64,000 bases of DNA, from positions 2,265 through 66,264 of the forward strand of contig DASRHM010000114.1 of the NCBI GenBank assembly GCA_035650575.1, read 5' to 3'. The position numbers and the translations under genes are program-made. Below, piece by piece: positions 30,140-44,115 of this stretch. Each line of letters begins with the position of its first letter. The stretch's first letter is position 1. The DNA comes from Dehalococcoidia bacterium. GTDB taxonomy: Bacteria; Chloroflexota; Dehalococcoidia; DSTF01; JACRBR01. Under the pieces are notes generated by a model. That model saw only the letters and a program-made list of their open reading frames with translations. It was not told the DNA's origin and did not search any database.

Positions 30140-33100
30140 TCACGCTTTTCCAAAGACGTCCTGGAGTTCCCTCAGCTGGTCGTGCCAAGTCGGCGGCGTC
30201 GTGAATCGCAAAGCTACGACCCGGTAACCCGCATCCTCCAACGCCGTGCGAGCAGCTGCATCCTTTCGCTGCTGGTGTACTGTGTGGTGCGCCGCGCCAT
30301 CGATGAACACGCAGATTCCAGGGGCGCCACTGTCTCGCTCGTAATAGAAGTCGGGCTGGGCGGCGATGCGCGAATCGGGCCTATTCTGTGCATTGTCAGG
30401 AAGGCGATGGCCGTACTCATACAGGTGGTCAAGGAAAGAAGCTTCTGCACGTGATCGCGGATCCAGCAATCCTCTGAGCCGCTGGTATTGGTCGTCGCGC
30501 GACCGACCCTTCGATTCCACCACGAGACTCGATGCCAATCTCAGCAGATGATCACGAATAAGCCGACGGTCGATCAGCCGTTGTTCGATCTGGTTGGAGT
30601 AACTTAGGAGGCACTCGTAGCAGCCCACGACGCACTGAAAGTCCCTCGGGGCCAGTTCTTGGCCAGTCGCAGCATCATAGTGACAGACCGACAGCGCGCG
30701 TCTGGCGACTGCAGCGAGAGCCCCGGCCTCCTCAACGATGCGCTCGAACACACCGGTTCCACCTTCCGCAGCTTCCCAGAACAGGATGCCGCGACGCTCA
30801 CCGCTGCCGATGAGCTCCGCCTCGATTTCCTGCTGTTCCACCTGGTATTCGAGCTCGATGCCGTGCCTGAGAGCGTAGAGGAGCGTCGTCAAGAACGGGT
30901 CGTCTCGATTGGGGGCGGGGTAATACAAGAGCAGGTTGCGGTGGTCGAACACGAACGGCTTGAGCCCCGCGATCGGTGCCGGCAGATCAGGCTCGTCGTC
31001 ATCAGCGACGACGGCGTCGGCCTCCATCTTCCGCCACCGTCCGGTCGATGGCTCAATTTGATACCCCTTGCGGTCACTTTGACGCCGGCCGTGGTTGATT
31101 CGCCAGAGCGTGGCAGCCTGGCCGTAAATCAGATGAGCAAGCTCATCCCCCTCGGAGCTGCGTATCGATGCAGGGCGGCGCCGCGCAGGCGGCACGAAGC
31201 AGAAATGGGTGGACGTGGCGTACCCATTGCGGAGCCGCTCCTCCTCGTCTGAAGAGATCCGGTCAGTAATGCGCGCCCTCATTGTCGGCTGCTCCAGAAG
31301 CTTCTCTTCCAGCCGCGACGCGCTGGCATCGAGCCGGCCACCGCAGCCATCGCACAACTCGTTGTCGACGCGCTCGTCGGTGTGGATGTAACCACAGTTG
31401 ATGCAGATACGGCCTCTGCGCAGCCTTCCTTCCAGGCCCGTGACAGGCACGATCGCCGCATCAACACGATGCTTCCGCCCTTCGTGATAGACGATGTTCA
31501 TCGGGGCGAACTCGGTCAGGCCAATAAACCGCGGACGGTCGATCGATTTCGCCGTGTCTCGAACACTGACCATCACGCGCACGGGAAGCCGAGGGAAGTT
31601 GTAGCCGGGAAGGAATCCCTCAGCGCCCAAATAGCGGTAAGGGTAGAAATCGGATTCCTGCAAACGCGACTCGCTCTTGCTCGCGCTCGCGTTGAGCAAC
31701 AGGTCGAGTTCGCGCCTTGCCTCACGCTCCCGTTGCTCAGCGCGTTCCTTCTCGCGCTGGTCTGGCCTCGGCGCATCGATGATCGCCCGGGCTCCGTCGC
31801 GCATGTCTTCCGCCGACCGGTACAGTTCGCGCCAGCGTCCGAGAGCGGTCTCCAGCGCCGATGGCGCCTCGCGAATTGTGCGTGCGAGCCAGTCCTCGCT
31901 GAACCACCATGCTTGCCGGATCTCGGGGGCTCGCTCAATCACGGCCCTCGCAGCGGCAAGAGCTTTGTCATACCACTGATCTGTACGTGCAATGTCGTCC
32001 TTTTTTTGGAGCGGATATTGCCGTGTGCGATCGGTCAGGTCGAGGACGTCGGCCATACTCTGGCCGAAGGAGATGCTCGTCTCCGAAAGCCACGTCGCCT
32101 GGAGGTGCGCCTGCACTAACTCCGGATTCTGGAGGTCCATGCGCGCCGGAGCGACGGCGCCAGCAATCATCCGCTCACGTTGGCGGAAGAAGTACTGATC
32201 GTGCACGTTGCCTTGCGCGGCGAACGTCAGAATCAAGGCGGGCCGGCCGCCACGTCCAGCTCGTCCGCTGCGCTGTGCGTAGTTGGCAGGTGTGGGCGGC
32301 ACGTTGCGGAGATGAACGCTGTTGAGGTCTCTGATGTCGACACCGAGCTCCATGGTCGGTGAACAGAACAGGGCCGGTAGTTCTCCCTTGCGGAAGCGCT
32401 CCTCACGGTCGATGCGGTCATCCACATCGACCTGACCCGTGTGTTCCCGTCCAAGCATCCCGCGCAGGTCACGGGCGCCCACGCGATACAACTCGCGAAA
32501 GTACGAGTTCGGTTCGCGCGCGCCCACCTCACGGCGAAGGTACAGCGCTCGCGAGCGGACTCTGTCAGGGGGTGGCGCCACGCCCGTGCCGGGCAGCCAG
32601 CGAATCGCGCTCGCAAGCACCCGAACGCCGCGTTCCGTCCCCCGTCGCGACACAACGCTGAGAATGTGGCCCCGAAGGTTCTCCACGATGCCCCGTATGA
32701 GCTGCTCGCCCTCCTGCGTAGACAGGTCGTGGTCCAGATCCCACGTGCGCTTGGAACGCAGATATCGCCCGATCGCCGAGCGCGACGTCATCCGGGTGTA
32801 CCGCCGTCGCCACTCAGTCTCATCAGGTTCAACACCGGGTAACAGCACGAGCGACTGGCGGATCAGCTGGTCTCGCGGGTCGAGCGCCCAGGGATCGCGC
32901 AGCCCCTGACTCTCCGTCGCCCGCATCGTGAGACGGCGAGTCGCCTGCTCCGTGAGGAGGTCAGCCTCGATCGCGAGCTGCGTCCGGAGGTGATCGAGCA
33001 CGGCTCCAAGGACCTCTTCTCGCCGACCCGGTGGGGCGCCCCCGATTCCGGGCAGCCGTTGCCAACGGGCGTCGTCGGCGGCGAGCTCGCGCAGGCCGTC

Positions 33101-41249: not shown

Positions 41250-44115
41250 CAGCGGCCACCTCGCCCGGGGACAAGCACGTAACACCCCACGATGTCCGGC
41301 GGAAGGTGCGGCTCCACCTTCAGCGCCACGTCGTTCACGACACTTCGTAGCCGGTCGTGCGCGTCCGTCAGCGCCTTCACGCGATCCTCCACGATAGGTG
41401 CGTACGAGTCGTCCGTGAGCATGCCGAGAGCCCATTCGACCTGGCGGCTGCGCTCGGCCTTCTCCATGTTCGCGGTGGGTTGCGCTTCACCGAGGAGACG
41501 AAGCGCTTCATCCTGGTACGGCGTAAGCCAGTGGAGCGCCGAATCGCGGCGCACGCATGCAGCCAGCACTACTTCCTCGGCGAACTGCTGCCGTGCCTCT
41601 TCCTCGAGTAGATATCGCAGTCGTAGCAACATGATGGCAGTCCGCTCGCGGACGGCATCGGTATAGATCGCGCTGCAGCGTGGAAAGCGGGGGTCGTCGC
41701 CAGCCAGGGCTCGCGAGAGGACCGCGTCGGCAACGGTCGCCACAACGGGATGATTGCGCGAGAGCAGCGTGACGCCCTCGGAAGGCACGCCATCGAAGAC
41801 GCAGCGCAACGGCGCCGTAAACGATGGTGCGCGCTCGACAATGTTCGCCAGGAGATCGCCGGGCTGCACGTCGAAGGCGCCCTTCGGCGCCTCGCACAAC
41901 TCGCCGCCGAAGCGCTGCAGCGCCTCGGCGAGGAACCGCCGTACGTCGTCGGGACTGCCGAGCACCGGCTCCAGCTCCTCGAGCTCACGGCTTACCTCGT
42001 CGGGGTTGATCTGGTGCTGCGCGAACCGCGTGCGGCTCCGCTGCTCACGTTCGGCTGCGGCATCCCACGCCTGGTGAAACTCGCTGACCTTCGGGTCATC
42101 GAGGGCAAGCTGGAGCTGCTGCGCACGGCCCTGGCCTCGCAGGAGGATGCTGTCGACGACGGCCTGCACGACTTGATCGGACTCCACCGGAACGGGCACA
42201 GAGATGCCAAGTTGCCGGCGGATCGTCTTCGCCTTGCGGATCAAGACATCGAGTACCACGAGGTCAACGGGATTGTCCGAGCCGTAGAGGAGGACGGTCT
42301 TGATCGTATCTCGCGCCTGGCCGTACCGGTCGACGCGGCCCTCGCGCTGCTCGAGCCGATTCGGGTTCCAGGGCAGGTCGTAGTGCACGACCGCGTCGAA
42401 ATGCTCCTGCAGATTGATGCCCTCGCTCAGGCAGTCGGTGGCGACAAGTACCCGCCGCGGCGATGTCACGAGATCCGCGACCTTCGCCTCGCGCACCTCG
42501 CTGTCACCGTCGCCACCCGTGACCGAGACCACGCGGAGATCGGTATGCTTCCCTTTCAGCGCCTTCTCCAGCTCTTTCGCGACGTACTCAGCGGTGGCGA
42601 TGAACCGGCAGTACACGATCGGCCGGAACCCTTCGCCGAGCAGCTCGTCGACGGCGCGTATGGCTTCGCCGAGCTTCGCGTCGAGCCTGGGTCCTGCAAG
42701 CGACCGCGCCTGCCTCAAGAAACTGTCGAGCTTGCGCCGTTCCGACGTCGTGAGTTCGGCGTCCGGATCGTCCACGGGCGCCGCAGGTACATAGTCTGCT
42801 GGCTGGTCCTCTTCAGACGAGTCGAGAATCAGGTCTGCGAACAATGCGTCCGGGTCGTCCTCAGAGGCCACGTGCCCAGCGATGTCGTGCCCCGGGCGGC
42901 GGTTCTCGAGCACGGCCTCTGCCGCCGCGGGGCTAGAGAGGACGCACCGCAGGATCGCGATGGCAGCCCAGTACCGTACCCGCTGCTGCTGCCGCCGCGC
43001 ATGTCCATCCACCGCGACACTATCGCGGCAGTAACGCAGCACATCCTCAAACAGCCGAAGGTACTCCGGTGCCATATTGTACGTGCGTTCGGTCGCGTCA
43101 CGTACCGGGAACGGCGTCTTTTCGCCGAGCCATTTCTCGAGGTCCGAGCGGCGGCGCTGGACGAAGTGCCGCGCGAGCTGCCTAACTGGCAACTCCTTGT
43201 CTTCGGGCGCGTCAAACGAGGAGTCAAGGAGTCCGAGCAACGAGCGAAAGCTTTCTTCGACCCCACTATGCGGCGTGGCCGTCGCCAGGATCAGATGTCT
43301 TGTGGGAATGGCTGCGAGGTCGCGTAGCAGTTCGTACCGCTGATGTTGCGCCCGCCCGGTACCACCGCGCGGCCGGGCGGCCGTGTGGGCTTCATCCACG
43401 ATGAGCAAGTCGGGCGCATTGTCAACGAAGCTGTGGCGGTATCGGTCAGACTTGACGAAGTCGATGCTGGCCACAAGATGGCGGTAGTGGGCGAAGACGT
43501 TCAGGTCGCCGCGCGGTAGATCACGTTCCAGCCGACCCATCCGGGCCGGCTGGACGATCACCGCATCAATCCCAAATTTCTCTCGCAGCTCCTGCTCCCA
43601 TTGCGCGCAAGGTGTGGGGCGCAGAGCACGCCGATACGATGGACGATGCCGCGATCCAGCAGCTCGCGCGCCACCATGGCCGCCTCGACTGTCTTCCCGA
43701 CACCGACATCGTCGGCGATGAGCATGCGCACCGGGTCGAGGCGCAGTCCCATGAGCAGGGGCACGAGCTGATACGGTCGCGGCCGAACGTATAGGTGGCC
43801 AAACGATCGGAACGGACCGGCGCCACTGCGAAGCGATAGCCGAAGGGCGTCGCGCAGAAGCAATGCGCCATCGAAGTTACCCGGGAGATCGGCATCCGGT
43901 GGTTCGTATCGCGCCGGGCGGACATCCGCCGCTTCAAACGGCAAGAAGATTCCCGTGTGTCCGTCGATTGAGCCGTCGATCGGCCGCACGCGCACGACGT
44001 CGTCATCACGGCTGACGACGACCCAGTCGCGCCCGCGCGTCCGAACAAGAGCTCCTGGTTTGAAGTCCAGCGCCATCACCCCCTTGTCGAGATAATACGG
44101 AGCGGACGGCGACAA
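41249..44115 (-). pseudogene. SNF2-family (DrmD-like) helicase, interrupted by a 1-nt frameshift near 43590
   Basis: N-terminal ORF (44115..43558) carries motif I LIADDVGVGKTVEAAMVAREL and ends ...VLCAPHLAR. The downstream frame (opening about 43590) continues QWEQELREKFGIDAVIVQPARMG...LLIVDEAHTA (DEAH) ...QREGRVDRYGQ (motif VI). A missing C in a cgcc run splits the gene. Confidence 0.75.

Follow-up and report, generated by a model that had tools for sequence, protein, structure and literature searches.

The window analysed here is a 64,000-nucleotide stretch of DASRHM010000114.1, a single metagenome contig assembled with MEGAHIT and assigned to a Dehalococcoidia metagenome-assembled genome (MAG). 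It carries a putative anti-phage locus that an earlier note, made from the sequence alone, had described as similar to class 1 DISARM but arranged like no described system. We assessed the locus using Pfam, PADLOC and NCBIfam profiles, structure models and the gene neighbourhoods of its homologues. Together these data point to an ARMADA Type I system in the gene order A-B-C, carried on an island in a tRNA-Gly gene, with an HTH-ImmA/DUF4411 pair as cargo and a contingency repeat in armB, this copy being probably off or decaying. We place the probability of this reading at about 85%. What is new is the armB repeat switch and the armB-armC cargo slot only; the locus type itself is known, and the view that it falls outside the described systems is out of date because the triad was named ARMADA in 2025.

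Gene content of the locus and its island

The locus has five genes, all on the minus strand, listed here from armA onwards.

armA, 41249..44076, minus strand: BrxHII/RapA-like SNF2 ATPase gene, split into two open reading frames (ORFs)
armB, 37032..41249, minus strand: PglX-like N6-adenine methyltransferase gene, frame interrupted
HTH-ImmA, 35784..36962, minus strand: 392 amino acids (aa) from ATG, Pfam HTH_3 and Peptidase_M78; fused Xre HTH and ImmA/IrrE metallopeptidase, putative antitoxin or regulator
DUF4411 (PIN-like), 35314..35784, minus strand: 156 aa, putative toxin nuclease; Pfam E = 5.7e-39, with a weak PIN match
armC, 30140..35296, minus strand: 1718 aa, intact; YprA-family DExH helicase with DUF1998 zinc module and C-terminal Vsr/DUF559-like nuclease

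Pfam and PADLOC agreed with the earlier assignment of these genes as SNF2, PglX-like methyltransferase, HTH-ImmA, DUF4411 and helicase/DUF1998/nuclease on the minus strand. The count of six genes was reduced to five, as armA is split by a deletion of 1 nucleotide (nt) near 43608-43611 ('APHL|CAQWEQEL'). The armA protein carries Helicase_C plus the usual helicase motifs, and the armA/armB junction is TGATG as had been noted. TGATG was also found at the ImmA/DUF4411 junction, where ATGA had been given, with the DUF4411 ATG overlapping the ImmA stop. The spacer between DUF4411 and armC is 17 nt and not 15 nt, and contains GAGGGA.

In armC the DEAD (1e-25), Helicase_C (1.5e-12) and MZB/DUF1998 (PF09369, 1.7e-9) domains were all detected in one ORF, which bears out the proposed helicase-DUF1998 fusion. 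The Vsr fold at the C-terminus was confirmed as a single Vsr-type PD-(D/E)xK nuclease, predicted to be active, and it stands in place of a phospholipase D (PLD) nuclease as proposed. PLD, PglZ and BrxC, already reported missing, were absent from the island genes, the remainder of the window not being scanned for these. The four-cysteine clusters of ArmC are invariant, as are the CxxC pairs C451/C454 and C567/C570, and these pairs give sequence hints only of BrxA-like, beta-barrel zinc and MarR-like insertions. Full-length homologues of this ~1700-aa helicase are abundant at 52-64% identity, and the fusion was kept, nearly always at full length, in the 120 listed matches out of more than 7,000 with E <= 1e-10. 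The armB product carries Pfam Eco57I and N6_Mtase with the motifs DPAAGSGHFL and NPPW, and its homologues show 54-63% identity.

ARMADA was described by Bell et al. 2025 (bioRxiv 10.1101/2025.09.15.676423) as a link between DISARM and Druantia that consists of a BrxHII-like ArmA, a PglX-like ArmB and a YprA-like helicase with a C-terminal Vsr nuclease, ArmC, which is nearer to DruE than to DrmA. Type I loci are usually YprA-first and are reversed in some lineages, and Type II adds ArmD, a RelE-GajB fusion (Bell et al. 2025). ARMADA II of enterohaemorrhagic Escherichia coli (EHEC) is now reported by DefenseFinder, and all four genes are essential there (EHEC OI-172, PMC13463889). A scan using one genome per species gave 80 loci from many phyla, coded L001, L002 and so on, and the three core genes were adjacent in nearly all of those with enough flanking sequence. 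This co-occurrence is not chance, and the genes are co-conserved, a point on which the earlier note had proposed a neighbourhood check. The neighbourhoods of helicase homologues (including L001 and L002) read SNF2, then methyltransferase, then helicase. This A-B-C order was found in the closest relatives, mostly Chloroflexota, and the order C-A-B in relatives at ~40% identity, including Mycobacterium, Cellulomonas and Thermogemmatispora. Against ArmC of YprA-first loci the window ArmC showed 39-40% identity along the full length, and against the E. coli Type II ArmC 26.5% along part of it. No ArmD (UvrD or RelE gene) was found in the island, and the absence of ArmD together with this difference in identity points to the Type I side.

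The genes lie on an island of ~16.6 kb that is integrated in tRNA-Gly of the Dehalococcoidia MAG, as indicated by the tRNA-Gly gene, a direct repeat of 37 nt and a dip in guanine-cytosine (GC) content. Window GC is ~71%, falling to 62-69% between 28.3 and 44.9 kb. Positions 28320-28356 and 44919-44955 are identical over 37 nt, and ~64/70 nt match across a longer stretch.

tRNA-Gly(CCC), 44925..45000, minus strand: identified by ARAGORN; island integration site, with the proximal repeat 44919-44955 at the tRNA 3' end
Distal att-like direct repeat, 28320..28356, strand not given: copy of the tRNA-Gly 3' half at the far island end
Radical SAM gene, 28595..29503, minus strand: Pfam Radical_SAM E = 1.9e-10; island cargo outside ARMADA

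Starting at the tRNA and following the minus strand, the order is ~850 nt with no recognisable gene, then armA, armB, HTH-ImmA, DUF4411, armC, two small ORFs and the radical SAM gene. The ~850 nt between tRNA-Gly and armA (44076-44925) held no Pfam-matching ORF and no integrase, and no integrase-like ORF was visible among the island ORFs as a whole; the island may be immobilised. The ORFs between the radical SAM gene and armC (29545-29793 and 29835-30188) have no Pfam match. In NCBIfam the radical SAM gene matched the PA0069, Rv2578c and 'radical SAM mobile pair B' families, each below cut-off. When the ArmC sequence was sought in other assemblies it was present on the window's own contig only.

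The repeat tract at the armB linker

The armB frame is interrupted at a dinucleotide tract near its 3' end, and the features that follow the tract are given below.

(GA)12 tract, 37892..37915, minus strand: armB linker after 'PRYWVPAEEV..'; in an early-stop frame at present
Hairpin copy 1 (GWQVAFRSIARSTDERT..), 37786..37875, minus strand: in its own frame, with a stop soon after
Hairpin copies 2 and 3 (GWLLAFRDIARATDERT.., GWLQAFRKITRATDERT..), 37550..37774, minus strand: in the frame continuing into the C-terminal domain
1-nt deletion GGC(C)CGCCG, 37278..37285 (near 37281-37283), minus strand: 'DLGYDG|PPYAWDE'; breaks the armB C-terminal helical domain

A ~35-aa segment (GW..AFR.I.R.TDERT..) occurs three times downstream of (GA)12, in diverged copies that are staggered across the frames. 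The third frame, which is the present one, reaches a stop within ~30 codons. Simulated changes in tract length gave an isoform ending after copy 1 with (GA)11 and the long frame with (GA)10 or (GA)13. The earlier note had regarded the frame breaks as damage in need of repair; the main armB break is instead a simple-sequence repeat, and relatives have repeats at the corresponding position, as described below. The separate 1-nt deletion was located by three-frame translation against intact homologues and removes the last ~90 residues even in the long frame.

The position of the repeat within the protein was assessed using an AlphaFold model of the C-terminal half of a canonical ArmB homologue (predicted local distance difference test score, pLDDT, 71). 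In the model a PRYWV strand is followed by a helix, the repeated segment as a beta-hairpin, two helices with a poorly modelled loop, and a confident C-terminal helical domain, which puts the repeat site in the linker between helix and hairpin. The fold of the C-terminal half is like that of CamA, M.TaqI and BrxX/PglX, gamma-class adenine methyltransferases with TaqI-type recognition domains. A phmmer search of ArmB against the PDB found nothing, and a profile gave a weak match to the MmeI methyltransferase domain (E = 0.03) that left the C-terminal region uninformed.

Repeats at this linker were found in at least 13 DNA loci and comprise 11 different units, which are 2, 4, 5, 7 or 10 nt long. 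The repeats in relatives include the following.

L001 (GACAC)36; L004 (GACAG)10; L005 (CAGA)21; L010 (AGAC)15
L082 (GCCGA)50; L087 (GCCGA)14; L088 (GCCGA)13
L084 (ACAG)12; L085 (AAGCTCG)7; L090 (TCGAGAAGAA)7
L092 (GACC)13; L093 (GA)18

Contigs L003 and L086 start exactly at the linker repeat site. In homologous proteins, poly-Pro and poly-Gly tails and peptide periods of 4, 5, 7 and 8 aa imply units of 1, 4, 5, 7 and 8 nt, so that unit lengths overall are 1, 2, 4, 5, 7, 8 or 10 nt and never a multiple of 3. The fetched loci, 2.1 Mb in total, contain 14 repeats of 10 copies or more, of which 12 are at the armB linker, and repeats were present in Illumina contigs (MEGAHIT, SPAdes) as well. L003, L004, L005 and L010 show the hairpin-copy layout of the window, L001 and L084 a second layout with one hairpin copy in each of the three frames, and more distant ArmB genes a single hairpin copy in an uninterrupted frame with no repeat. 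The 120 closest ArmB proteins fall into three length classes, truncated (~1106-1235 aa), canonical (~1290-1340 aa) and long (~1385-1520 aa); ~60 are truncated at the linker and ~12 are long with an extended linker. These automatic tail classes are approximate, as a loosened motif pattern misfiles a few proteins. Homologues with the PRYW anchor were truncated at the linker in ~60 of 98 cases.

Evidence that the tract varies came from close relatives. Within single clusters at 90% identity, members differ mainly by tract length and all three frames are represented, as in '..FTPPPP-RSDVLFTRRAGPQLALRDVTNATNERT..', '..FTPPPPP-DQTFYLLAELARNSLS..' and '..FTPPPP-IRRSIYSPSWPATRSP..'. Loci L166 and L167, obtained via cluster members and derived from different samples, show 0 mismatches over 8.4 kb and carry an armB tract of (AGAC)5 and (AGAC)4, respectively, and this difference of one unit switches translation between the two truncated isoforms. 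The same two loci also differ by an in-frame 15-nt indel in armB (~L167:4486) and an in-frame 27-nt indel in armC (~L166:7470). BLAST among the repeat-bearing loci from the genome and metagenome scans gave no pair at 85% identity or above. Simulated changes of one or two units up or down yielded a full-length ORF in 9 of 12 loci. The ratio of nonsynonymous to synonymous polymorphism (pN/pS) of copy 1 was 0.45 in its own frame as compared to 1.0 and 1.4 in the other two (five loci, 30 codons); purifying selection in its own frame only suggests that the truncated protein with copy 1 at its end is produced and under selection. The staggered hairpin copies and the linker repeats, together with a one-unit difference at 0 mismatches, indicate phase variation of ArmB. 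Judged from sequence, armB has the features of a contingency locus: the repeat lies inside the ORF, its unit length is not divisible by 3, and length polymorphism among close relatives changes the frame.

We tentatively propose, at somewhat under even odds, that the repeat and the staggered spare hairpins form an evolved translational switch with three states: full-length ArmB, a truncated ArmB that has the recognition domain without the C-terminal helical domain, and a null. If so, modification would be uncoupled from defence, with truncated ArmB for example methylating without supporting restriction, or the reverse, and free-living uncultured Chloroflexota, like other environmental bacteria, would commonly carry classic contingency loci. 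It is well established that repeats drive the switching of methyltransferases of the Type I, Type III, Type IIG and Pgl kinds. No paper was found in the literature that ties repeat-driven phase variation to DISARM or ARMADA methyltransferases, and neither phase variation nor frameshifts, ImmA or DUF4411 are mentioned in the main text of Bell et al. 2025.

Several other rearrangements were seen in the armB genes of relatives. In a Pseudomonadales armB (L082:21495-23250), two C-terminal cassettes, complete and diverged and each in a frame of its own, lie downstream of (GCCGA)50. The second, at 52% identity, is nearer to the window clade than the rest of that armB, which suggests cassette exchange as far as sequence can tell. 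The ArmB of L054 (L054:3911-9985) is ~2000 aa long with many in-frame insertions of 'GPHPPAPSPKALGEGEQGGEG'-type repeats and an inserted DUF559-like domain, and looks as though a small repeat element had invaded it without closing the frame. At L006:8990-9080, the site of the simple repeat in relatives, there is a tandem duplication of ~37 nt with an internal palindrome (CCCGGCCTGGCCGGG), and the armB frame there is the full-length one. L126, L143 and L147 each contain several heptanucleotide repeats (GTAATTC/AATTACG, 4-11 copies; for example L143:5586-5620, 5956-6011), with a site right at the armB 3' end among them. A gap of ~335 nt in L067, L071 and L074 was considered as a further triple-copy case and rejected, as it proved to be a helical insertion that stays in frame and has a single copy of the motif.

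Cargo at the armB-armC junction and alternative explanations

The HTH-ImmA and DUF4411 genes had been listed in the composition of the system, as a module inserted in mid-operon. The pair fits the layout of a three-component toxin-antitoxin module, with a fused Xre-HTH and DUF955/M78 peptidase directly upstream of a DUF4411 PIN gene; HTH-DUF955-PIN is a predicted module of this kind with DUF4411 as toxin (Matelska 2017, PMC5499597). In PADLOC, HTH-ImmA matched RmrA, the RosmerTA antitoxin, at 68 bits and capP weakly. The pair is not part of the core, as the armB-armC junction in other A-B-C loci was empty or held unlike cargo.

L002: AAA_15/OLD-TOPRIM ATPase
L074: AAA_15 ATPase and AAA_14/DUF4143
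L003: HicB and SecB-like protein
L009, L019: DUF3800
L012: PIN protein
L008: GmrSD_N
L040: HTH-ImmA and DUF4411, upstream of armC
L024 (Pseudanabaena), L024:7205-9669: TumE and RelE/ParE-UvrD helicase, ArmD-like

The pair is thus best read as interchangeable cargo in an armB-armC hotspot, and the junction appears to be a predictable place for new defence or toxin-antitoxin cargo. The alternative that HTH-ImmA/DUF4411 is an integral CapH/CapP-like DNA-damage regulator of armC expression, and not independent cargo, is unlikely but has some weight. It draws on the weak capP match, on translational coupling of the pair 17 nt upstream of armC and on the same pair upstream of armC in L040. It also draws on Lau et al., who described, next to DISARM in Nocardia, a CapH-CapP fusion accompanied by a VapC-like gene and suggested regulation in response to DNA damage; in view of that case a regulatory link to armC may exist. 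Against it, most relatives have nothing or unrelated cargo at the junction, the pair is a widespread stand-alone module, and its best PADLOC matches are the RosmerTA antitoxin models. A separate alternative is that the locus is dying and that the armB breaks, far from being an evolved switch, reflect ordinary decay of a pseudogene or errors of assembly at a slippery repeat. The two further 1-nt deletions outside the repeat (armA and armB), the single metagenome contig as source and the ~60 of 98 PRYW-anchor homologues truncated at the linker all fit this account, but we regard it as improbable. Decay would not put varied repeat units at one linker in many lineages, avoid multiples of 3, or conserve staggered copies at pN/pS 0.45 in their own frame, and it sits poorly with 0-mismatch loci of 8.4 kb that differ by exactly one unit and with the repeats in Illumina contigs. 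For the window copy, decay on top of the switch is likely. ARMADA in the window is probably inactive or decaying as assembled, judging from its sequence, because of the ArmB early stop and the 1-nt deletions in armA and armB, and because ARMADA II needs all its genes; armC, HTH-ImmA and DUF4411 are intact. Alternatively, both 1-nt deletions may be consensus errors of a mixed population.

Two alternatives concern the identity of the locus. That it is a non-canonical class 1 DISARM, with DrmA and DrmB fused and DrmC replaced by a Vsr-like domain, is very improbable. The SNF2 protein did score 212 bits to DrmD in PADLOC, next to 439+147 bits to PDLC02853 (labelled DpdE) and 141 to BrxHII, and the methyltransferase scored 264 bits to DrmMI. 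The best NCBIfam match of the SNF2 protein was DISARM_DrmD, and Milman et al. 2023 (PMC9881135), who reported programmed inversions in DrmMI-like genes of DISARM-like loci beside fused YprA-DUF1998 helicases, called such loci 'similar to Class 1 DISARM'. However, the DISARM_DrmD match (244+60 bits) is far under its 610-bit cut-off, no DrmMI-type model passes, the helicase scored 303 bits to DruE as compared to 55 to DrmA, and there is neither a separate DrmB nor a PLD DrmC. NCBIfam has no ARMADA-specific model, nothing was above its cut-offs, and the literature places the triad in an ARMADA clade nearer to Druantia. The earlier note was correct about kinship with class 1 DISARM; membership does not hold. 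That the methyltransferase is an ordinary Type IIG restriction-modification enzyme with two unrelated helicases as neighbours is hardly credible. PADLOC REase_MTase_IIG models reached up to 172 bits, and ArmB residues 1-450, which match no Pfam domain, MmeI_N included, could hide a nuclease-like fold. The DrmMI score is higher, no endonuclease domain was detected, the alignment of the N-terminal region showed no invariant catalytic D/E/K, and the three-gene synteny extends across phyla in two orders.

Some points weigh against an ARMADA Type I locus with a phase-variable armB. The type assignment rests on identity and a missing ArmD and not on a tree with published references, and experimental support for ARMADA is for Type II only, from which Type I function is extrapolated. 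Elsewhere an HTH-ImmA fusion with a PIN-like gene has been proposed as a DNA-damage-responsive DISARM regulator, and such a link to armC may exist here. Both extra 1-nt deletions may be assembly errors, and the (GA)n length in the window population is seen from one assembled contig. Many supporting contigs are, judged by name, long-read assemblies, in which homopolymer lengths are unreliable, and the pN/pS test comprises only five loci of 30 codons each.

By analogy to ARMADA II, DISARM and BREX, ArmB of an ARMADA Type I system would methylate a host motif as a self mark, and ArmA and ArmC would act on unmodified incoming DNA, with ArmC translocating and cutting via its Vsr-type nuclease and the host cell surviving. 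The HTH-ImmA/DUF4411(PIN) pair would be a separate toxin-antitoxin or regulator module in the cargo slot. From the anatomy of the gene, slippage at the armB repeat would move translation among three frames and give three products, namely an early stop, a protein ending just past the spare beta-hairpin of the recognition domain, and a full-length protein with the C-terminal helical domain. Slippage would in turn give heterogeneity within the population in defence and possibly in methylation.

Comparison with known systems

This locus adds a Chloroflexota, island-borne and A-B-C-ordered example to ARMADA Type I, a system which PADLOC 2.0 and NCBIfam 20 still split into matches to DruE, DrmD, DpdE and DrmMI. 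Throughout one ArmB clade a single linker bears a hypervariable repeat, and the frame-staggered layout downstream of it is conserved. If the switch is real, cells of one population would differ in ARMADA defence, it would be wrong to take truncated armB genes in MAGs for dead ones, and the isoforms would provide an experimental handle on the parts of ArmB that serve methylation as compared to restriction.

The window shares with published ARMADA Type I the same three proteins (BrxHII-like SNF2, PglX-like methyltransferase and ~1700-aa YprA helicase with a single C-terminal Vsr) and the lack of ArmD. The reversed A-B-C order was already noted in archaea and cyanobacteria by Bell et al. and is found here in Chloroflexota; the armB-armC cargo slot, the armB frame switch and the armA and armB frameshifts set this locus apart from Type I as published. 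ARMADA Type II (E. coli NCTC 12900 / EHEC OI-172, PMC13463889) has the gene order ArmA-ArmB-ArmC as here, and its defence is non-abortive. Type II differs in having ArmD, a 2113-aa ArmC with extra EEP and Vsr domains, and a 1644-aa ArmB without the PRYW anchor. In published Type II loci ArmD comes after armC, whereas the ArmD-like gene of L024 lies between armB and armC.

Class 1 DISARM (Ofir 2018; Aparicio-Maldonado 2021; Bravo 2022) shares the SNF2 protein (DrmD), the adenine methyltransferase (DrmMI) and a YprA helicase with DUF1998. There DrmA and DrmB are separate, whereas here one ORF fuses them; the PLD nuclease DrmC has no counterpart, as no PLD domain occurs in the island ORFs; and the N-terminal EVE-like domain and trigger loop of DrmA were not seen. 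In the loci of Milman et al. 2023 the mechanism is site-specific inversion between alternative segments, in contrast to repeat slippage here. DruE of Druantia is the best profile match of the helicase, and Bell et al. also describe insertions and zinc modules common to both. The Druantia partners DruA-D, DruH and DruM/F/G are absent from the island, and DruE itself has a PLD or an inactive Vsr (Bell et al.). BREX differs in its PglZ and BrxC, neither of which is among the island ORFs. The HTH-ImmA/DUF4411 pair resembles the modules of Matelska 2017, RosmerTA (RmrA) and CapH/CapP in that a PIN-like gene comes after a gene fusing Xre-HTH with an M78 peptidase, and differs in its place inside a defence operon, where it sits between armB and armC in the same orientation.

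The armB repeat is like those of phase-variable methyltransferases (Type III mod, Type I phasevarions, the Cj0031 Type IIG polyG and the Streptomyces pglX G-tract) in that a hypermutable repeat switches the gene by frameshift. Unlike in those genes, the tract here lies near the 3' end in a linker, its unit differs by lineage and staggered spare copies follow it. A structured product results from at least two of the three frames, and the hosts are free-living environmental bacteria and not host-adapted pathogens.

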